Below, piece by piece: positions 2,508-12,089 of a DNA stretch of 64,000 nucleotides. Every line of letters begins with the position of its first letter. Position 1 is the stretch's first letter. The stretch spans positions 15,161-79,160 of the forward strand of contig JBCCXZ010000010.1 of assembly GCA_039190745.1 (NCBI GenBank), given 5' to 3'. The notes beneath the pieces are model-generated. The model saw only the letters and a program-made list of their open reading frames with translations, was not told the origin of the DNA and did not search any database. The stretch comes from Planctomycetota bacterium (GTDB lineage: Bacteria; Planctomycetota; Planctomycetia; Pirellulales; Lacipirellulaceae). A program made the translations under genes and the position numbers.

Positions 2508-3443
2508 GTGAGTGAGACCGCGTTCCTTTTTCCCGGGCAAGGGGCCCAGTACGTGGGGATGGGGCAAGCCCTGGCTGAGGCGCCTGCGTGCCGCGTGTTG
2601 TTCGACCGTGCCGCAGAGGTGCTCGGGTACGACCTGCTCAAGCTCTGCACCGAGGGACCGCAAGAACAGCTCAACGCGACCGTGCATAGCCAGCCCGCGC
2701 TGTTCGTCACGAGTTTGGCAGCATTGGAGCAGCTGAAAGCAGACCAGCCGGAAGCGGTCGCGGCTTGCAAGATGGCCGCGGGGCTGAGCCTGGGCGAGTA
2801 TACAGCATTGGCGTTCGCAGGGGCGCTGAGTTTCGAGGACGGGCTGAAACTGGTGCAAGAACGCGGCGCCGCCATGCAGGCGGCCTCCGACGCCACGCCC
2901 AGCGGCATGGTCAGCGTGCTCGGCCTGGAACGCGACAAGGTGGAAGAGCTTTGCGCACAAGCCCGCGAGGGCGGCGTCTTGCAGGTGGCGAACCTGCTCT
3001 GCCCGGGAAACATCGCCGTCTCGGGAGACAAAGACGCCTGCGAGCGCGTGACCGGCCTAGCCGAAGAAGCGGGGGCGATGAAGGTCATCCCGCTGGCGGT
3101 AGCGGGGGCGTTCCACACGCCAATCATGCAGCCGGCCTACGAGCGGCTTCAGGCTGCGGTTGCCGAGACCGAAATCCTGGCGCCGCGGGTGCCGGTGGTC
3201 TCGAACGTCGACGCCCGGCCGCATACCGACCCGGCAGAGATCCGCGAGCTGCTGGTCAAGCAGCTTGTTTCGCCGGTGCTGTGGGAAGACTCGGTCCGCT
3301 GGATGCTCGCGCCGGCGGGTGGAGAGGGCAACGGTGAGGGAGGCGGCATCGAGGGCTTTTTTGAGATCGGCGCCGGCAAGGTATTGCGTGGTCTCTTGAA
3401 GCGCATCGCCCGCAAGACGCCCTGCGAGACGATCGCGGCCTAG
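2508..3443 (+). CDS. fabD: Malonyl-CoA:ACP transacylase
   Basis: FPGQGAQ, GLSLGEY active-site Ser, AGAFHT, PVLW, EIGAGKVL. Confidence 0.96.
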   Translation: MSETAFLFPGQGAQYVGMGQALAEAPACRVLFDRAAEVLGYDLLKLCTEGPQEQLNATVHSQPALFVTSLAALEQLKADQPEAVAACKMAAGLSLGEYTALAFAGALSFEDGLKLVQERGAAMQAASDATPSGMVSVLGLERDKVEELCAQAREGGVLQVANLLCPGNIAVSGDKDACERVTGLAEEAGAMKVIPLAVAGAFHTPIMQPAYERLQAAVAETEILAPRVPVVSNVDARPHTDPAEIRELLVKQLVSPVLWEDSVRWMLAPAGGEGNGEGGGIEGFFEIGAGKVLRGLLKRIARKTPCETIAA

Positions 3444-3493
3444 ACCGTCAGCACAACAACAAATCAACACTAGCTGAGACGGAGTAACCAATC

Positions 3494-4264
3494 ATGGCGG
3501 ACGAAGCCAACCGCAGGGTGCAAGTCGACCTGTCGGGCAAGACGGGCCTGGTGACCGGGGCGTCCCGCGGCATCGGCAAGGGCATCGCGGTCGCGCTGGG
3601 CGCGGCCGGCTGCAAGGTGGCCTGCCTGGCACGGAACGAAGACAAGCTCAAGGAAACCGTCGGCGAAATCGAAGCGGCCGGCGGCTCGGCCACGGCCTTC
3701 GTGTGCGACGTGACCGACTCCGAGGCGGTACAGAAGGTGTTCGACCAGCTCGTCGAAGAGTGGGAGAAGCTTGACATTGTCGTCAACAACGCCGGCATCA
3801 CCCGCGATACGCTGATCCCGCGGATGAGCGACGAGGAGTGGGACGACGTGATCCAGGCCAACCTGCGGTCGGTGTTCCTCTGCACGCGGGCGGCTTCGCA
3901 GGCGATGATGCGGAAGCGGGTCGGGCGGATCATCAATATCTCCAGCGTCTCGGGCCTGATGGGCAACCCCGGGCAGTCGAACTACTCCGCCTCGAAGGCG
4001 GGCATCATCGGCTTCACGCAGACGGTGGCCCGCGAGCTGGCCGGGCGGAAGATCACGGTGAACGCGATCTGCCCTGGCTTCATCTCCAGCGACATGACCG
4101 ACGCCTTGGGCCCGGCGCTGGCGGACGAGGTCAAGAAGCGCGTCCCCGCCAAGCGTTTGGGCGAAGTGGAGGAGATCGCCGACGCGGTGCTGTACCTGTC
4201 GAGCGACTCGGCGGCGTACATCACGGGGCAAGTGCTCACGATCGACGGCGGCCTGACGGCCTAA
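3494..4264 (+). CDS. fabG: 3-oxoacyl-ACP reductase
   Basis: TGASRGIG, NNAGITRD, YSASK, fab operon context. Confidence 0.96.
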   Translation: MADEANRRVQVDLSGKTGLVTGASRGIGKGIAVALGAAGCKVACLARNEDKLKETVGEIEAAGGSATAFVCDVTDSEAVQKVFDQLVEEWEKLDIVVNNAGITRDTLIPRMSDEEWDDVIQANLRSVFLCTRAASQAMMRKRVGRIINISSVSGLMGNPGQSNYSASKAGIIGFTQTVARELAGRKITVNAICPGFISSDMTDALGPALADEVKKRVPAKRLGEVEEIADAVLYLSSDSAAYITGQVLTIDGGLTA

Positions 4265-4333
4265 ACCCATGCCCAAGGCCGCCGATCGGCCGTGGGCGGT
4301 GACCTGGACACCAAATCGTCAAACCGCTATCTC

Positions 4334-4363
4334 TTGACCTCGTTTACGGAATCGCTCTATTTT
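4334..4363 (+). promoter_or_regulatory. Putative internal promoter for acpP-fabF
   Basis: TTGACC-N18-TATTTT in the fabG-acpP spacer. Confidence 0.4.
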
Positions 4364-4577
4364 TAACCGCTTGCACAGAGCCGCAGGGACGGGTTTTCCG
4401 GCGATCCGATGGAGTGGATGAAGCGCCCCACGGGCGCGTTACGCATAACCTTCCAACAGATAAGCACTCACCCCACGCACGCAACGTGCGGCTCGGGCCC
4501 CGCCTGAGCCAGAGTTTTCAAGTCAAACAACTAGACAAATCATCGGTATCCCAGGGATACGAAGGAGGACCGATATC

Positions 4578-4817
4578 GTGGCCTCAGTCATGGAACGCGT
4601 CACCGACATCGTCTCGGAGCAACTCGGTGTCGAGAAGGACAAGATCAGCGCAGAAACGTCGTTTGTAAACGACCTCGGGGCGGACTCGCTCGATACGGTC
4701 GAGCTGGTAATGGAGCTCGAAGAGGAGTTCGACGTGAACATCCCCGACGACGCGGCTGAGAAGATCCAGACCGTCGGCCAGGCGGTCGAGTTTATCGAGC
4801 AGAACTCCGGCGGCTGA
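4578..4817 (+). CDS. acpP: Acyl carrier protein
   Basis: [31 protein letters not shown] before GTG. Confidence 0.97.
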
Positions 4818-4913
4818 GAGGGCGCGCAACGGGTCCCGGCGGGCGGACCGCCCGCTTGAGTGTTTCCTGCCGCCGCCGTGCGGGACGCCCGAATCTATGC
4901 GTGATGGAATGCC

Positions 4914-6152
4914 ATGAAGCGACGTGTTGTCGTCACAGGCGTCGGCGCCGTGACCGGCTTGAGCTGCAAGGTGGAAGACCTGTGGCAGAAAGTGCTGGCC
5001 GGTAAGAGCGGCGTCCACAAGATCGAACACTTCGACACGACCGACCACAAGGTGGACTTCGCCGGCGAGGTCCTCAACTGGTCGGCCGACGGGTACGTCA
5101 CCCCCAAAGAGGCAAAGCGGCTCGACCGCTTCGTGCAGTTCGGGCTTGTGTCGGCGATCGACGCGGTGACCGACAGCGGGCTCGACTTCGAGAAGGAAGA
5201 CGTCACCCGGTGCGGGGCCATGGTCGGCTCGGGCATCGGGGGGCTGAACGAGATCGAAGAGCAGGAGCGTCGGTTGATCCACAAGGGTCCCGACAAGGTT
5301 TCGGCGTTCACGATCCCCAAGCTGATGCTCAACGCGGCGAGCGGGCACGTCTCGATCCGCTACGGCCTGAGGGGCCCGAACCACGCGATCGCGACCGCCT
5401 GCGCCAGCGCCACCAACGCGATGGCCGACGCCTTCCGGGCGATCCAGCACAACGACGCCGACGTGATGATCACCGGCGGAAGCGAGGCGGCCCTGACGCC
5501 GATCGGGTTGTCGGGCTTTGCCAACATGAAGGCCCTCTCCACGCGGAGCGACGCCCCGCAAGAGGCGAGCCGGCCGTTCGACGCCGACCGCGACGGGTTC
5601 GTCCTCTCCGAGGGCGCGGGCATCCTGGTGTTCGAAGAACTCGAGCACGCCCAGAAGCGCGGCGCCAACATCTACGGCGAGGTGCTCGGCGTGGGCGCCA
5701 GCGCCGACGCGGGGCACATCACGCAGCCCGATTCCCACGGCACCGGCGCCGCGGCGGCGATGGCGGGGTCGCTGAAAGACGCGGGGATCAACCCCGACGC
5801 CATCGACTACGTGAACGCCCACGGCACGAGCACGCCGCTGGGCGACAAGGCGGAGACGACCGCCATCAAGCGTGTGTTCGAGGACCACGCCTACCAGATG
5901 AACGTCTCGAGCACCAAGAGCCACCTCGGCCACCTGCTGGGGGCGAGCGGCGGCGTCGAGGCGATCTTCTCGCTGCTAGCGATACGCGACGGCGTCTGCC
6001 CGCCGACGATCAACCTCGAGACGCCCGACCCCGAGTGCGACCTCAACTACACGCCCAACACGCCGCAGGAGCGGTCGCTGGAGCGGGTGATGAGCAACAG
6101 CTTCGGCTTCGGCGGGCACAACGCGACGATTGTGCTTGGGAAGCTCAGCTGA
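4914..6152 (+). CDS. fabF: Beta-ketoacyl-ACP synthase II
   Basis: TACAS, NAHGTST, KSHLGHLLGA (intact Cys-His-His), SNSFGFGGHN. Confidence 0.97.
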   Translation: MKRRVVVTGVGAVTGLSCKVEDLWQKVLAGKSGVHKIEHFDTTDHKVDFAGEVLNWSADGYVTPKEAKRLDRFVQFGLVSAIDAVTDSGLDFEKEDVTRCGAMVGSGIGGLNEIEEQERRLIHKGPDKVSAFTIPKLMLNAASGHVSIRYGLRGPNHAIATACASATNAMADAFRAIQHNDADVMITGGSEAALTPIGLSGFANMKALSTRSDAPQEASRPFDADRDGFVLSEGAGILVFEELEHAQKRGANIYGEVLGVGASADAGHITQPDSHGTGAAAAMAGSLKDAGINPDAIDYVNAHGTSTPLGDKAETTAIKRVFEDHAYQMNVSSTKSHLGHLLGASGGVEAIFSLLAIRDGVCPPTINLETPDPECDLNYTPNTPQERSLERVMSNSFGFGGHNATIVLGKLS

Positions 6153-6263
6153 TTGCGGAGTTCGGAATCGCCTGGGTGAAGCGCGCCCTTCAGGGACATA
6201 TCTAGCCAGAGCCGTTCCCTGTCTTCTGAGCTGCAGCAAGCCTTCGTCGCTTTGACCGTTTTC

Positions 6264-6584
6264 TTAGGAAGCAGACTCTCGCACTGCGTTGAGGATGTCC
6301 GACACCGGCAACTCGCCTTTAGTGTTGGCCGACTTGCTCCACACTACCTCCTGCCAGGTGTCAGGAGATTTGCGCGACTCGGACCGCTGCAACAAGTACT
6401 CGCGATCGCGACCGTCGAAGACGACCCTAAGTCGCACGCCTCCACATCGCATTGTAACGCTCCAAGAGCCGAAAGACTCGTAGGAGTATGTGTGCGCGCA
6501 GAGCTGAGCTGGTAGTCCCTTCAGTGCATCGCACAGAGTCGACATTTCCTGAAAGTGCCGAGTGGGATAGTCCAGTGCATCCAT
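6264..6584 (-). CDS. Small hypothetical protein (106 aa), atypical codon usage
   Basis: MDALDYPTRHFQEMSTLC...YSYESFGSWSVTMRCGGVRLRVVFDGRDREYLLQ; lower-GC look; the longer 238-aa track ORF runs through repeats and overlaps the toxin. Confidence 0.55.
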   Translation of the reverse strand: MDALDYPTRHFQEMSTLCDALKGLPAQLCAHTYSYESFGSWSVTMRCGGVRLRVVFDGRDREYLLQRSESRKSPDTWQEVVWSKSANTKGELPVSDILNAVRESAS

Positions 6585-6638
6585 CGAGAGTGCTTGGGCT
6601 GATCGGTTAGTTATTGGTGGGGAACAGACCAGGGGTGG

Positions 6639-6700
6639 CACCGACTGTCGGCCGCGAACAGAGCTGCCTCCGAACGAACTCTGTCGGCCGATTGTCGGTG
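6639..6700. repeat. Imperfect inverted repeat, possibly a degenerate REP-like element
   Basis: CACCGACTGTCGGCCGCGAACAGAG...CTCTGTCGGCCGATTGTCGGTG, preceded by GGGGTGG as in the adjacent REP family. Confidence 0.5.
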
Positions 6701-6751
6701 TGCGCAGCGCAGGAGGCAATCCGGCTAGCCCTATGCCACGAACATGCTCAC

Positions 6752-6818
6752 GGGTGGCACTGGCGTCTCGCCAGTGCTTTCTTGCGGGTTCTGCACTGGC
6801 AAGATGCCAGTGCCACCC
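6752..6818. repeat. REP doublet (REPIN-like), family A copy 1
   Basis: GGGTGGCACTGGCGTCTCGCCAGTGC + 15-nt spacer TTTCTTGCGGGTTCT + GCACTGGCAAGATGCCAGTGCCACCC; each arm is GTGG plus a hairpin. Confidence 0.9.
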
Positions 6819-6846
6819 AGAAGAGACACTTCGCAGCTTCCACGGG

Positions 6847-7176
6847 CTAAGGCTCAGCCAACTCCTCAGCTTGCAGAGGCGGTTGCCCATGACCTCGGAT
6901 GCGGAGGATGGTGACCTCATCGTCTTCGACCAGGTAGACGGCAAGGTAGGTGTTGCCTTGGGTCGTCTTGAATGGAGCACTGCGTAACCCCCGCCTCAGC
7001 CACGGTTCTTCTAACGCGGGGCCGTAGATCATGGGGTTCTCAGCTAGCCTCGCCTTCATCGCCTCGAACGCATCCTCCCACCGGAGTGCACCTTCCAACG
7101 ACCTCTGAGCGATGTAATCAAACTGCTCTTCGAAATCTTGCGCCGCGGCAGGGTGGATGCGGACGGCGTAGCTCAC
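6847..7176 (-). CDS. RelE/ParE family type II toxin
   Basis: MSYAVRIHPAAAQDFEEQFDYIAQRS...LAENP...AVYLVEDDEVTILRIRGHGQ; GTGA overlap with upstream small gene. Confidence 0.85.
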   Translation of the reverse strand: MSYAVRIHPAAAQDFEEQFDYIAQRSLEGALRWEDAFEAMKARLAENPMIYGPALEEPWLRRGLRSAPFKTTQGNTYLAVYLVEDDEVTILRIRGHGQPPLQAEELAEP

Positions 7177-7406
7177 TTGCCGCCTTCTGCGCGGGCCGCA
7201 CGCCTTGCGGCTAAAAACTCGTCGACCGGCACGCCCCGTTCGCCGGCGTCGTAGGAAGCGAGCCGCTCTCGGAGAACCGCGATCTCGGCGGGGTCCACTT
7301 CCTTCCACTGTCGGAAGATGTCGTCGAGGGTGAGTTGGTCGCCGTGCTGCGCCGCGAGGCGTCTGGCGAACTCGGTGAATCCCTCAATTTGCTCGGTGAT
7401 CGTCAT
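7173..7406 (-). CDS. Putative antitoxin (77 aa)
   Basis: Small acidic ORF translationally coupled to the ParE-like toxin; C-terminal LASYDAGERGVPVDEFLA typical of such partners. Confidence 0.75.
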   Translation of the reverse strand: MTITEQIEGFTEFARRLAAQHGDQLTLDDIFRQWKEVDPAEIAVLRERLASYDAGERGVPVDEFLAARRAARAEGGK

Positions 7407-7459
7407 GCAGTGAAGGATAACACCGAACCCATTAGAGGGTCAAAATAAGCCGTAATGAC

Positions 7460-7526
7460 GGGTGGCACTGGCGTCTCGCCAGTGCAGAACCCTCAGCAAA
7501 GCACTGGCAAGATGCCAGTGCCACCC
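7460..7526. repeat. REP doublet (REPIN-like), family A copy 2
   Basis: Arms identical to 6752-6818; 15-nt spacer AGAACCCTCAGCAAA. Confidence 0.9.
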
Positions 7527-7655
7527 AGCCATCCTACGGCGTGCCTGGTTGGGGCCGCCGCCCCCCTGCTAGCACCCCGCCGTTCGGCGTTGTGACGCCC
7601 TTGCGCCGCTTCTATACTCCTCGCCCCTTATTTGGCGCCACGTGAGGAGTGCGGT

Positions 7656-8903
7656 ATGCGAGTTCGAACCACAGCGATGTCCGCCCTGTTGATGCTGTCC
7701 GCGGCGACCGCTTCCGCGCAGTTCCCCCCATCCCAACCTGGGGCGAGCAACTGGCGTTCGGCGACCGACAACGCTGCTGGTCCCGGCAACTCACCCTTCG
7801 CGCAGCCGGCTCCGCAACAAGCGACGCAGCCGGGCAGGCAGGCCGCCGCGCCGCCGCAGCAACAGCCGCCGCAGCCCACGCGGGCCCGCGTGACGAAGGG
7901 CTCCGGCCAGTTGCCCAACGAGCACGGGCAGGTGTGGCGCGACTACGACATCACGCCCTACACGCTCCGCGTGCAGAACGCGTCGCAGCCGGAGCAGGCG
8001 ATCGTCGACTGGATTCTCCGCGAGACCGGCTACGAGGCGTGGCACTCCAAGCCGCTGGGCCTGTTGAGCGCCGACACCAAGACGCTCCGAGTATACCACA
8101 CGCCGCAGATGCAGTCGATTGTCGCCGACATCGTTGACCGCTTTGTGAACAGCCGCGCCGAGAGCCACAGTTTTGGGCTGCGGATTGTGACCGTCGATAA
8201 CCCAAACTGGCGTGCCCGGGCGCTGCCGTTGATGACGCCTATCCCCGTGCAGTCGCCGGGCGTGCAGGGGTGGATCCTCGCGAAGGAAGACGCGGCGTTG
8301 ATGATGGCCGAGATGCGCCGCCGGGGCGACTACCGCGAGCACAACCCGCCGCACCAGATGGTGCTCAACGGCGAGTCGCTGGTGGTCTCTTCGATGCGGA
8401 ACCGCTCGTACACGAAGGGCGTGATCCGGACGCAGGCGGCCTGGCCCGGTTATCAGCCGGAGTTGGGCCAGCTCGAAGAAGGGTTCTCGCTGGAGTTCAG
8501 CCCGCTGATGTCGCTCGACTCGCGGACCACCGACGGGGTGGTGAAAGTGCGGCTGGCGCAGGTGGAGAAGATGCTTCCGGTGAAGCTGGAGGTGGCGAGC
8601 ACGGTGGCGCCCAATCAGCGGACCGAGGTGCAGGTGCCTCAGATGACGCAGGTGCAGGTGCACGAGCGTTTCCGGTGGCCGACCGACCAAGTGTTGCTCT
8701 TGAGCATGGGCGTGGTGGCGACGCCGGGGCCGGCGAAGCCGAACATGCTGACCGACGTGGTGCCGATGCTAAACACGGCCCCGCGGGCCGACGCGCTGCT
8801 GTTCGTGGAGAGCAAGGGCCCGGTGGCCCCGCCGACCGCCGGCGGCGTGAGCCCCGCGGTGACGGCCAGCCGGCCGGAGCAGACCTACCACGGGCGGTAC
8901 TAA
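7656..8903 (+). CDS. Exported hypothetical protein with possible secretin-like C-terminal domain
   Basis: GAGGAG RBS, signal peptide (ATASA-Q), P/Q-rich linker, HQMVLNGE...GFSLEFSPLMSLD segment reminiscent of secretin beta domains. Confidence 0.6.
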   Translation: MRVRTTAMSALLMLSAATASAQFPPSQPGASNWRSATDNAAGPGNSPFAQPAPQQATQPGRQAAAPPQQQPPQPTRARVTKGSGQLPNEHGQVWRDYDITPYTLRVQNASQPEQAIVDWILRETGYEAWHSKPLGLLSADTKTLRVYHTPQMQSIVADIVDRFVNSRAESHSFGLRIVTVDNPNWRARALPLMTPIPVQSPGVQGWILAKEDAALMMAEMRRRGDYREHNPPHQMVLNGESLVVSSMRNRSYTKGVIRTQAAWPGYQPELGQLEEGFSLEFSPLMSLDSRTTDGVVKVRLAQVEKMLPVKLEVASTVAPNQRTEVQVPQMTQVQVHERFRWPTDQVLLLSMGVVATPGPAKPNMLTDVVPMLNTAPRADALLFVESKGPVAPPTAGGVSPAVTASRPEQTYHGRY

Positions 8904-8917
8904 GCGCAAGTTCTATT

Positions 8918-8990
8918 GGTGCTATGCCCACGCTCGCGTGGGCATGGCCAATCGTGGTTCTCATGCCCACGCGAGCGTGGGCATGGCACC
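8918..8990. repeat. REP doublet (REPIN-like), family B
   Basis: GGTGCTATGCCCACGCTCGCGTGGGCATG + 15-nt spacer + CATGCCCACGCGAGCGTGGGCATGGCACC. Confidence 0.88.
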
Positions 8991-9086
8991 GAGCCTACTG
9001 CTCTGCCTGCCTAGAGCCCGGCGTGCCGAAGCGGTAAGCTGTCGGTTTGCTCAGAAGCCGACCCGCCTCTCCCATACCGACCGGCT

Positions 9087-10394
9087 ATGCCTCCGTCTTC
9101 CGATTCCCCCCGCCGTGTTGCGATTACCGGCATCGGCGTCGTCTCGCCGATCGGCTCGTCGCTCGATGCGCTGCGCGAGGCGCTGTGGGCGGGCCAGAGC
9201 GGCGTGAAGCCGCTGGAGTGGATGGCCGAGCTGCCCGAGCGGGTCCACTACGGCGGCGAGGCTTGGGGCTTCGCCGGCAAGATCGACGACTTTGGCGATC
9301 TGCCGAAAGAGCGCAAGAAGTACATCCGCAAGGCCATCAAGCTAATGTGCCGCGAGACGGTGATGGGTTTGGCCGCGGTCGAGCACGCGATCCAGAATGC
9401 CGGCGGCGACGAAGCCCTGGGCGACCCCGAGCGGTTCGGCGTGGCCTTCGGCAGCGACTACATGCTGACGATGCCCGAGGAGTTTGAAGACAGCATGGCG
9501 AAGTGCCGCGAGAGCGGCGACTTCCGGTACGACGACTGGGGCTCGGCGGGGCTGGCGGAGATGAACCCGCTATGGATGCTGAAGTACCTGCCGAACATGC
9601 CGGCCAGCCATGTGGCGATCACCTACGACCTGCGAGGGCCGAACAATTCGCTCACGCTGCGTGAGGCGTCGGGCGTAGCGGCCGTGCGCGAGGCGGCCCA
9701 GACCATCGCCCGCGGCCACGCCGACCGGATGGTGGCCGGAGCCACCGGCACGCGGCTGCACCCATTCAAGACCGTGCACGCGGTGCAGACCGAGCAGCTG
9801 GCCGACCCAACGCTTGAGCCCGCCGAGGCGAGCCGGCCGTTTGATTCGTCCCGCACCGGCATGGTCGTCGGCGAGGGCGCCGGAGCCGTCGTGCTAGAAG
9901 AGCTGGAGTCGGCCCGGGCGCGGGGCGCGACGATCTATGGCGAGGTCATCGGCTCGGGGAGCAGTTCCGTGACCGACCGCGAGCTGCGGGGCAACCCGCG
10001 GCAGGCTTTGGAGAACGCGGCCAAGGCGGCGCTGAGAGACGCCGGCGTCGACGCGGTGGGCCACGTCAATGCGAACGGCCTGGCGACCCCCGATGCGGAT
10101 CTGCAGGAAGCGAAGGCCATCGCCGCGTCGACGGGCCGGGAAGATACGCCGGTCGTGGCGCCAAAAAGTCGATTCGGCAACCTTGGCGCCGCCAGTGGCG
10201 TGGTGGAATTAGCCTGCAGCCTGCTGGCCCTGGAGAAGGGTTCGCTCTTCCCCGCAATCAACTGTCCGACGCCTGACCCTGAGTGCCCGGTGGACGCGAG
10301 CCCCGCCGAGGGGAGCGATGCGGGGGGCTCCTTCTTAAAGCTCAGCGTGACGCCGCAGGGCCAGGCCGCGGCGGTGGTCGTGCGAGCCGTCTGA
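9087..10394 (+). CDS. FabF-like ketosynthase homolog lacking the catalytic triad
   Basis: RRVAITGIGVVSPIG, LPNMPASH, ASRPFD, GEGAGAVVLEE; Cys->Glu (LREAS), His->Asn (VNANG), His->Asn (FGNLG). Confidence 0.9.
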   Translation: MPPSSDSPRRVAITGIGVVSPIGSSLDALREALWAGQSGVKPLEWMAELPERVHYGGEAWGFAGKIDDFGDLPKERKKYIRKAIKLMCRETVMGLAAVEHAIQNAGGDEALGDPERFGVAFGSDYMLTMPEEFEDSMAKCRESGDFRYDDWGSAGLAEMNPLWMLKYLPNMPASHVAITYDLRGPNNSLTLREASGVAAVREAAQTIARGHADRMVAGATGTRLHPFKTVHAVQTEQLADPTLEPAEASRPFDSSRTGMVVGEGAGAVVLEELESARARGATIYGEVIGSGSSSVTDRELRGNPRQALENAAKAALRDAGVDAVGHVNANGLATPDADLQEAKAIAASTGREDTPVVAPKSRFGNLGAASGVVELACSLLALEKGSLFPAINCPTPDPECPVDASPAEGSDAGGSFLKLSVTPQGQAAAVVVRAV

Positions 10395-10479
10395 TTGCTG
10401 ACCAGTCTTGCGTGGCTGTTGGCCAGGCTTTGCCGGCTCTCCAAAGCCCTACGCGACGCTTGTTCGCCCTGTGTGGTAC

Positions 10480-10508
10480 TTGACACTCCCCCGTTAGAGT
10501 CCTAGGCT
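10480..10508 (+). promoter_or_regulatory. Putative sigma70 promoter of nusA-infB-rbfA
   Basis: Consensus TTGACA-N17-TAGGCT about 170 nt upstream of nusA. Confidence 0.65.
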
Positions 10509-10679
10509 GATGGATTCCCCGGAGGTGCTTAAGGCCTTACGGGGCAAGGGTTTTCTGGCGTGCGACTGAAGAGCGGCCGAGGGCAGCAGCTCACGGTTCG
10601 CTCTCCTTGCGCTTGGGCCCCATACAACTCGAACAACCTGGTATGCCCGGCGGCGGGCGTAAACGCCGCGGAGACCTAC

Positions 10680-12089
10680 ATGAACGCCACCGAAGTGCTG
10701 CGGATCGTTGATGCCATCCACCGCGATAAAAACATCGACAAGGAGATCGTCTTCGAAGGGATCGAAGCCGCGCTCGTGTCGGCGACCAAGCGGCACTACG
10801 GCGAAGAGGAAGAGGTCGAGATCAGCATCGACCGCGACAGCGGCGAGATCAGCGGCACCCTGAACGGGGAGCCGCTCGATTCGGAAGAAACGGTCGGCCG
10901 CATCGGGGCCCAGACCGCCAAGCAGGTGATGATCCAGAAGATCCGCGAGGCGGAGCGGGACGCCCTGTACGACGAGTACACCGAGCTGAGCGGCCAGATG
11001 GTCAGCGGCGTGATCCAGCGCTACGAAGGCGGCGCCGCAACGGTAACGCTCACCAACGTCGAGGCGATCCTGCCCCGCAGCGAGCAGATCCCCGGCGAGA
11101 CGCACCACGTGAACGAGCGCGTGCGGACCACCGTGTTCGAGGTCCGCAAGTCGGGCAGCCGGGTGAAGGTGATCCTCAGCCGCGCGCGGCCGCAGCTGGT
11201 GCAGCGGCTGTTCGAGCAGGAGATCCCCGAGATCATCGACGGCGTGATCGAGATCCGGGCGATGGCCCGCGAGCCGGGCTACCGCTCGAAGGTGGCGGTG
11301 ATTAGCAGCGACCAGCGGGTCGACTGCGTGGGCGCCTGCGTCGGCGTGCGGGGCAACCGGATCAAGAACATCGTCGACGAACTCGGCGGCGAGCGGATCG
11401 ACATCGTCCGTTGGGACGAAGACCTGGAGGTGTTGATCCCCAACGCCCTGCAACCGGCCGAGGTTGAGCAGGTGATCCTCTGCAAGATGCTGGGCCGGGC
11501 GATCGTGCTGGTGCGGGAAGACCAGTTGTCTCTGGCGATCGGCCGCCGGGGGCAGAACGTCCGCTTGGCGAGCAAGCTCTCGGGGTGGGACATCGAGATC
11601 ATGACCCAGGAAGAGCTGGCCGAGTCGATCGACCGGGCGGTGACGGGCTTCGGCGAGCTGGAAGGGCTGGAGATCGAAGTCGCGGAGAAGTTGGTCGAGG
11701 AGGGCTTCCTGAGCTACGATGACCTCTCGGTGATCGAGCCGGACGCGCTCATGGCGATGGGCAACCTGGACGAAGAGACGGTCGACAAGATTGTCGAGCA
11801 AGCCGAGAAGCTGGCCGAAGAGGCCGAGGCCGCCGCGGCCGAGGCACGCCGAGAAAAGCGAGAACGGGAGCGTTTGGCTGCGGAGGCGGAAGCCGCTCGT
11901 GAGGCCGCTGGCGAGGCGGCTGAGGGAGACGCCCCCGCTGAGGCAGGGACGTCCGATGAGGGAGACTCGCCCGCAGAAGCAGTCGGCGAAGTTGAAGAGC
12001 CGCCTGCCGCGGAAGCTCCCGCCGAGCCGGCTCCAGAACCCGCCTTGGAGGGCGAGGCCGCCGTTGAAGAAAAGAGCCCGGAGGCTTAG
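10680..12089 (+). CDS. nusA: Transcription termination/antitermination factor NusA
   Basis: [49 protein letters not shown] 10680 preferred over track start; acidic Ala/Glu tail. Confidence 0.97.

Follow-up and report, generated by a model that had tools for sequence, protein, structure and literature searches.

We examined a 64,000-nucleotide stretch of DNA (hereafter the window) from a Planctomycetota bacterium of the Lacipirellulaceae (GenBank assembly GCA_039190745.1, contig JBCCXZ010000010.1, positions 15,161 to 79,160) and, within it, a 435-residue ketosynthase (KS) homolog that lacks the catalytic cysteine and is encoded downstream of the core fatty-acid synthesis (fab) genes. Judged by its sequence, this protein is a member of a separate planctomycete KS clade, which we call KS-beta, and is no close duplicate of the housekeeping fabF. 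Its cysteine loss has been kept under purifying selection, and the gene is not decaying. The reading that we favour, with some confidence though well short of certainty, is that the KS-beta paralog is a non-condensing partner of an active KS, comparable to the chain-length factors (CLFs) of type II polyketide synthases (PKSs).

The reading frame (9087-10394, forward strand) is open over all 435 codons, and its usage is normal, with a third-position GC content (GC3) of 0.865 and a codon-usage cosine of 0.95 to a pool of fab, nusA, infB and rbfA genes, in agreement with the initial annotation, which had described an intact FabF-like frame from the letters of the window. Both Pfam KS domains were recovered (PF00109 at 124.9 bits and PF02801 at 60.6 bits), while the protein stayed below the curated cut-off of all 20 NCBIfam KS models that it touched; the best of these was fabF (TIGR03150), at 229.4 bits against a cut-off of 493.75 that the window's own fabF (4914-6152) exceeds with 615.6 bits. 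BLASTP aligned the two proteins at 34% identity (131/388, E 2e-50), pairing GPNHAIATACAS with GPNNSLTLREAS around the catalytic cysteine, such that the core ACAS of FabF stands against REAS in the paralog, and pairing the histidine motifs VNAHGT and GHLLGA of FabF with VNANGL and GNLGAA. MAFFT alignments reproduced this pairing at all three catalytic positions, and the codons are GAG for Glu193 (9663-9665), AAC for Asn330 (10074-10076) and AAC for Asn365 (10179-10181). The Cys/His/His triad of the window copy thus reads Glu/Asn/Asn, as had been noticed earlier, and the acyl-gate phenylalanine loop is altered as well, from FGFGG in FabF to VTPQG. Because a Glu, preceded by a conserved Arg, stands in place of the Cys, the protein can neither bear an acyl chain nor form an acyl-enzyme. 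Identical letters over 9600-10400, Asn330 included, occur in a Logan contig from what is probably the source sample, and this does not count as independent evidence.

Conservation was evaluated among the 120 nearest database homologs (54-91% identical to the paralog; positions in FabF numbering), the named members of which are Pirellulales genera such as Adhaeretor, Bythopirellula and Lacipirellula. In this set Arg162 is found in 119 sequences, Glu163 in 119 (with one Asp), His303 in 119, Lys335 in 120, Asn340 in 119, and Pro399, Asp311 and Glu314 in all 120, and 36% of positions reach a conservation of 95% or more. The family pattern is accordingly Glu-His-Asn, and the change of the first His to Asn was seen in the window copy alone (1/120). 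The earlier statement of a threefold catalytic replacement therefore applies to the window copy only, since the other 119 of 120 homologs retain the first His. Orthologs that keep the Cys, together with relaxed selection on this copy, had been named as what would speak against the proposed partner role; we found Glu in 119 of 120 homologs and a dN/dS (the ratio of nonsynonymous to synonymous rates) of 0.109 between the paralog and its 91% identical ortholog (dS 0.49, 433 codons), beside 0.091 for fabF from the same two genomes. Orthologs were present in 24 of the 24 sampled genomes of the order, and relatives in 598 of 600 scanned stretches. In a broader set, the 80 nearest full-length representatives of 50%-identity clusters, the Cys site held Glu in 44, Asp in 26, another residue in nine and Cys in one, with both His positions highly variable across this wider beta clade. 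A Planctomycetaceae-type sister family has its own constellation of Asp, His, Lys and Asn, in 118-119 of 119 members.

The genome, an assembly of 125 contigs that totals 3.9 Mb and is 95% complete, encodes FabH and seven KS domains, namely two in one large PKS frame, fabF, the KS-beta paralog and three further stand-alone genes: an active KS with a Cys/His/His triad on contig C85, a divergent active KS on C13 and a second Cys-less paralog on C3. These were placed in a tree of 57 KS sequences drawn from the present genome and some 30 further planctomycete genomes, a quick IQ-TREE maximum-likelihood run with SH-aLRT (approximate likelihood-ratio) support only, which omits the PKS KS domains (two loci), one fragment, duplicate loci of this genome and a 262-aa fabF fragment, and which holds no CLF or anammox reference sequences. 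The tree sets a FabF clade apart from a sister pair consisting of an alpha clade (12 rows, all Cys/His/His, SH-aLRT 100), into which the C85 gene falls as KS-alpha, and a beta clade (35 rows, 97). Basal beta members, from family f53, retain the triad, and every later member is Cys-less, mostly with Asp or Glu; the window paralog is nested among these Cys-less members in a well-supported 8-row group with its Pirellulales orthologs. The earlier description as a FabF paralog is refined in that the protein is no close fabF duplicate and belongs to a separate KS clade. Across the class Planctomycetia, four to eight stand-alone KS-like matches per genome were counted in 101 of 101 sampled genomes, with one to three Cys-less copies in each of the ten genomes examined in detail (of which two, G173 and G204, have some unread loci and incomplete tables).

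Other lineages preserve an arrangement that connects the two sister clades. In seven loci of a phylum-level sample a beta-type gene lies directly upstream of an alpha-type gene, and the same order, with a Cys-less beta immediately before alpha, was seen in 5 of 5 complete or near-complete genomes from families f94-f96, which belong to the same class, one pair (G204) being judged from the coordinates of two Pfam matches alone, with its triads unread. By Pfam, one such operon (G269) runs dehydratase, ketoreductase, acyl carrier protein (ACP), dehydratase, beta, alpha and alpha/beta-hydrolase, and another (G263) runs dehydratase, ACP, dehydratase, beta, alpha, hydrolase and GH3-type ligase. The C85 cluster of the present genome and that of a genome of the same family (G254) read dehydratase, ACP, dehydratase, alpha, with the beta slot empty. 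Families f1, f2, f88 and f3 have fabF, one or two alpha genes and two to three dispersed Cys-less paralogs in 5 of 5 genomes examined, a count in which one G173 locus is unread. The simplest history, as gene order and tree suggest it, would begin with a tandem KS pair whose upstream member lost its Cys and was then duplicated, after which the beta genes would have left the alpha operon in Pirellulales-type lineages. Separately, the five f94-f96 genomes (G263, G212, G229, G269 and G204) have an extra stand-alone beta-clade KS with an intact Cys/His/His triad, a type not found in the five Pirellulales-type genomes examined.

Structural evidence was in keeping with a folded KS of the thiolase type. 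The AlphaFold2 (AF2) model of the paralog, from a 100-row alignment, had a predicted local distance difference test score (pLDDT) of 95.7 and a predicted template modelling score (pTM) of 0.94, and a Foldseek search of the PDB returned FabF structures as its top matches (8r1v_A, E 6.3e-40, template modelling (TM) scores 0.85/0.90), and, at rank 49, a type II PKS ketosynthase complex (6smp_B); the search added nothing on partner or function. A 13-residue insertion in a helix-loop-helix is common to the paralog, the C3 paralog and KS-alpha, and FabF is without it. For KS-alpha plus the paralog, the sole pair modelled as a complex, the score was 0.96, a mark that 116 of 157 solved complexes attain, as do 2 of 215 mismatched pairs, and the best of three controls was at 0.00. 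Three runs shared at least 94% of contacts, with a partner pLDDT of at least 92, and the modelled interface takes in residues 121-175, with the insertion, as well as the active-site loop as far as Arg192.

Turning to the neighbourhood, the window order is fabD, fabG, acpP, fabF, a ParE-type toxin-antitoxin insertion on the opposite strand, a 423-aa secreted protein, the KS-beta paralog, nusA, infB and rbfA (see table). The ParE-like frame has a GC3 of 0.65, against 0.86-0.93 in its neighbours, a codon-usage cosine of 0.74 and a lower local GC, an atypical composition that points to its recent arrival in a block that is conserved apart from it. For the 423-aa protein, the ESM Atlas returned planctomycete clusters named 'type II and III secretion system protein' at 0.98 and distant Secretin clusters at 0.91-0.93 (TM 0.43-0.46), so that a short, divergent secretin-like protein is a model-based lead. 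The intergenic stretch before the paralog (8905-9086) folds as RNA at -107.2 kcal/mol (z = -8.9), and the core palindrome within it has 37 copies in the genome, often paired about 40 nt apart, which marks a family of elements like repetitive extragenic palindromes (REP). Scanning 6100-10700 for promoters and terminators gave three promoter-like sites, none directly 5' of the paralog, and no terminator-like site.

Table. Features of the window around the KS-beta paralog, and related KS loci elsewhere in the genome.
Feature	Position	Strand	Evidence or context
Core type II fatty-acid synthesis operon: fabD 2508-3443, fabG 3494-4264, acpP 4578-4817, fabF 4914-6152	2508..6152	+	Pfam; TIGR03150 for fabF
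ParE-toxin-like ORF and small overlapping upstream ORF (7173-7406)	6847..7406	-	PF05016, E 1.8e-12
Secretin-like secreted protein (predicted), 423 aa	7632..8903	+	ESM Atlas; without Pfam or NCBIfam match
Paired REP-like palindromes, long near-perfect hairpin	8917..8990	.	two copies of a 25-nt palindrome, 183-nt gap before the KS-beta paralog
Cys-less KS-beta paralog, KS fold, 435 aa	9087..10394	+	Pfam, BLASTP, AF2 model, tree
Lengthened helix-loop-helix, residues ~121-175	9447..9611	+	alignment columns 201-250; in modelled dimer interface
Arg192-Glu193, replacing Ala-Cys of the catalytic loop	9660..9665	+	alignment; Arg 119/120, Glu 119/120 nearest homologs
Asn330 (AAC), first catalytic His position	10074..10076	+	His in 119/120 homologs; sole Asn is the window copy
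Lys360 (retained) to Asn365 (second catalytic His lost), KSRFGN	10164..10181	+	Lys 120/120, Asn 119/120
C3 paralog, Asp/His/Asn, 43% identical to the KS-beta paralog	G000:C3:86754-88019 (L044:6755-8020)		stand-alone, between a divergently oriented fatty-acid desaturase gene and smpB
KS-alpha cluster (dehydratase, ACP, dehydratase, KS-alpha)	G000:C85 (L045:2103-7612)		Pfam

Synteny was followed by an alignment-based scan of species genomes that gave the 598 relatives in 600 candidate stretches, of which the best 80 loci, 48-62% identical to the paralog, were used; their labels are mostly Pirellulales, Planctomycetia or member genera, with a few odd ones. The most conserved upstream neighbour of the orthologs is the secretin-like gene, a homolog of which lies directly 5' and on the same strand in 58 of the 74 loci whose flanks were long enough, at a median gap of 178 bp, and nusA lies downstream in 32 of 60. 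A fabF gene adjoins the ortholog in three loci of this set, in four loci of family f3 and in two metagenome-assembled genomes (MAGs) labelled Schlesneria, and the fab operon is divergent from it, on the fabD side, in two more (L119 and L149); in three genomes (G206, G215 and G043) a distance of 0.2 to 3.4 Mb separates fabF from the ortholog. Linked in many loci and distant in these three genomes, the tie to the fab operon is therefore recurrent and not universal, and the link to that operon which the initial annotation had read from one window is real and recurs across loci.

Several side observations came with these loci. Four loci of the scan (L112, L157, L179 and L180) and one protein (P0275) are clearly of Pirellulales or Planctomycetaceae type yet filed as Granulosicoccus, Kuenenia stuttgartiensis, Chitinophaga or Saccharimonas MAGs, and are probably mis-binned contigs. 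The C85 KS-alpha cluster adjoins a gene whose product has an HTTM domain (E 2.2e-70) and a vitamin-K-dependent gamma-carboxylase lumenal domain (E 1e-38), which is unusual in a bacterium. The divergent active KS on C13 (L046:5706-8862; L048) lies directly 5' of a phytoene-desaturase-like FAD/amine-oxidase gene, with a FabH-like gene about 7 kb off, a layout that recalls the KS and 'phytoene dehydrogenase' clusters of anammox bacteria and Desulfotalea discussed by Rattray et al. 2009 (PMC2649909).

Taking these lines together, the favoured reading is that a folded and selectively kept protein of the KS-beta lineage would form the silent half of a KS heterodimer, its interface segments (the active-site loop and the lengthened helix-loop-helix) completing or shaping the substrate tunnel of the active partner. 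The paralog may even be required for that partner's activity, as in CLF/KS and anammox FabFmut/FabF2 pairs. The triad loss, its conservation, the clade, the ancestral beta-alpha operon and the synteny are seen in the data, and from there we infer heterodimerisation, the identity of the partner and an influence on activity or on the length of the chain. The likeliest partner by descent would be the single KS-alpha of the genome, on C85, and by neighbourhood the alternative would be the housekeeping FabF; the case for KS-alpha, a tentative choice that we put ahead of FabF, draws on descent, on the vacant beta position of its cluster and on the insertion that both proteins have at the interface, and FabF, which we consider doubtful, has synteny in its favour. 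The CLF-like partner proposed in the initial annotation is partly supported, by beta genes upstream of an active KS in other families, by the conserved Cys loss and by the high score of the KS-alpha model, which may come from likeness to solved KS dimers, and its partner need not be the neighbouring FabF, as descent points to KS-alpha on another contig.

A number of observations weigh against this reading or against KS-alpha within it. No RNA dataset covering 9600-10400 was listed, and no expression data were found. In none of the Pirellulales-type genomes examined is the ortholog beside KS-alpha, and 20 of 57 loci have fabF at most 4 kb upstream of the ortholog. The betas encoded in operons are closer, by BLAST bits, to the group B/C3 paralog type than to the window paralog, and therefore the C3 protein may be the partner of alpha, with the window paralog moved to another partner or role. 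The pass of the complex model may reflect likeness to the many KS dimers already solved, and this model has no power to separate KS-alpha from FabF, the C3 paralog or a homodimer as partner. The Scalindua brodae amxFabFmut protein crystallised as a homodimer according to a preprint (bioRxiv 10.64898/2026.05.19.726425), so homodimers of such proteins exist. Finally, the near-invariance of Arg-Glu, His, Lys and Asn exceeds the needs of a dead site and would fit a retained ligand-binding or catalytic role.

The alternative that survives best keeps the heterodimer and changes the partner, such that a Glu-type beta and the housekeeping FabF would together modulate chain length or flux in core type II fatty-acid synthesis. 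The recurrence of fab-operon linkage in different arrangements points this way, with fabF, secretin-like gene and paralog as the common order, fabF directly upstream in the f3 loci and the Schlesneria-labelled MAGs, and fabD divergent in two loci, and so does the greater divergence of the window paralog among the betas, which a switch of partner would predict. Yet the interface insertion is common to alpha and beta and missing from FabF, the separations of 0.2 to 3.4 Mb noted above dissolve the linkage in three genomes, and the downstream nusA-infB synteny (32/60 loci) implies that the block is partly mere conserved housekeeping gene order; we regard FabF as an unlikely partner on balance.

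Less likely still, the paralog would not be silent, its conserved acid-His-Lys-Asn site having a chemistry of its own, for instance malonyl-ACP decarboxylation for priming or thioester hydrolysis or transfer, in a homodimer or a heterodimer. The counts for Arg-Glu, His, Lys and Asn (119-120 of 120 homologs) and for Asp/His/Lys/Asn in the sister family argue for such a site, and KAS III-type enzymes use a His and Asn pair for decarboxylation. The anammox heterodimer, moreover, decarboxylates malonyl-ACP, as the preprint states (10.64898/2026.05.19.726425). Against this, the window copy has Asn for His and still stays under purifying selection, both His positions vary widely across the wider beta clade, the gate loop has gone from GFGG to TPQG, FabH is already present for priming, and a carboxylate in the place of an acyl-thioester or Gln amide should repel the carboxylate of malonate. 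Initiation in the absence of FabH, considered as a need that the paralog might fill, was rejected on the presence of FabH, and the initial annotation's analogy with Cys-to-Gln variants that decarboxylate malonyl-ACP does not transfer directly, because the residue here is a Glu carboxylate, the second His is Asn family-wide, the first His is lost in this copy and FabH is encoded. A bolder and about equally improbable version would make the acid-His-Lys-Asn site a working active or ligand site and the Glu-type beta an essential fab-linked enzyme or sensor of planctomycete envelope-lipid synthesis, e.g., for carboxylate-based processing of malonyl- or acyl-ACP, and the conserved pairing with a secretin-like outer-membrane gene would mean that both take part in making an envelope lipid or in its export. 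As for a decaying duplicate or a pseudoenzyme without a role, the loss of all three catalytic residues, the first His uniquely so, is what decay would give, and we nonetheless rejected relaxed selection as hardly credible on the conservation among 120 homologs and a dN/dS of 0.11 close to that of fabF, with orthologs throughout the order and the scanned stretches, over a third of positions nearly fixed and a confident fold model.

What is new here is the history of the alpha/beta operon, the conservation pattern, the loss of the first His as a trait of the window copy and the conserved secretin-like neighbour; for the gene itself, the outcome clarifies more than it surprises. The scheme, in which an ancestral beta-alpha operon was followed by Cys loss, then by duplication and dispersal with one copy tied to fab, names concrete testable pairs, and if true it shows a route to a chain-length-factor-like system inside primary metabolism. 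A wider setting comes from a transposon-sequencing (Tn-seq) study of Planctopirus limnophila (PMC10632474), which reports a paralog group of five KS proteins, all essential, and whose supplements give insertion indices of 0.0024 for Plim_2564, 0.0031 for Plim_2562 and 0.232 for Plim_2563 between them, with fabD (Plim_2566) nearby; the low indices of Plim_2562 and Plim_2564 are consistent with the essential KS group. With KS-like copies in all 101 sampled genomes and this essential group, silent ketosynthases probably belong to the essential lipid synthesis of this phylum, whose envelopes are unusual. We also considered these P. limnophila genes as beta types, since their order recalls fabF, an intervening gene and the paralog; a scan with a Planctomycetaceae-type FabF and a protein search with the fabF-linked beta of L221 gave no record named P. 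limnophila, and this mapping was set aside as only a lead.

Comparison with known systems begins with the CLFs of type II PKSs. The actinorhodin CLF, Iga12 and ApeC share with the paralog a KS fold without Cys, and CLFs are obligate partners of an active KS that shape the tunnel at the dimer interface. Aromatic CLFs have Gln at the Cys position. The paralog differs from CLFs in having Glu there, not Gln (family Glu 119/120, Asp 1/120), and in not being encoded beside KS-alpha and ACP, its KS-alpha lying on another contig, whereas the f94-f96 beta relatives are so encoded. It is also nearer in sequence to E. coli FabF (2gfv_A, 173.8 bits) than to the actinorhodin CLF (1tqy_B, 103.4), with the actinorhodin KS at 126.7. 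Being closer to FabF and not beside its KS, the paralog therefore appears to stem from an independent Cys loss within the FabF-like radiation. Set against FabF (KAS II) itself and its C163Q and C163A laboratory mutants, the fold is the same and Asp311, Glu314 and Lys335 are retained; the paralog, however, is without the Cys and the second His, has an altered gate loop and a helix-loop-helix 13 residues longer, and falls below the equivalog cut-off.

Within the phylum the type had been noticed before, so that no newness attaches to it as such. Rattray et al. (2009, Biol Direct 4:8; PMC2649909) tabulated two fabF paralogues of Rhodopirellula baltica without Cys163 in their Table 2, namely RB4527 (NP_866153), with Glu163, His298, Leu300, Lys328, Asn333 and Pro392, and NP_865682, with Asp163; the authors place both with Kuste3606 and its like and suggest that they differ in substrate and function. 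Compared by its Table 2 residues and not placed by name in our tree, RB4527 equals the consensus of the paralog's family at all six, including the Leu that 104 of the 120 homologs have at the Leu300 position, and matches the window copy at five, the latter having Asn at the His298 position, while the Asp163 paralogue matches the group B/C3 paralogs. That study records the residue deviation and gives no partner, operon history or assay. Judged by title and abstract, none of the papers listed in a full-text search on FabF and planctomycetes appears to deal with these paralogs, Rattray 2009 and the anammox work excepted, subscription journals lying outside this coverage, and no biochemical study of a Glu- or Asp-type beta was found in the literature searched, where further searches gave CLF literature only. 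Biochemically, no silent planctomycete KS outside anammox bacteria has been tested so far in that literature.

The anammox pair is the closest functional counterpart. According to the preprint by Granatino et al. (bioRxiv 10.64898/2026.05.19.726425), amxFabFmut and amxFabF2 co-purify and decarboxylate malonyl-ACP only together, and amxFabFmut resembles the KS-beta paralog in coming from the same phylum, in being FabF-like with a mutated triad and in working beside an active KS. The anammox layout, with the inactive gene directly upstream of the active one and an ACP and FabZ-like dehydratase of its own, matches the beta-alpha operons of f94-f96, such as those of G269 and G263. The differences are that amxFabFmut has Val or Thr at the Cys site with both His replaced, against Glu or Asp in the type described here, and that the anammox cluster carries radical-SAM (S-adenosylmethionine) genes, whereas the window paralog is unlinked from KS-alpha and its Cys-less type comprises two paralogs in this genome. 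The paralog is thus a further member of an already noticed planctomycete family of silent ketosynthases.

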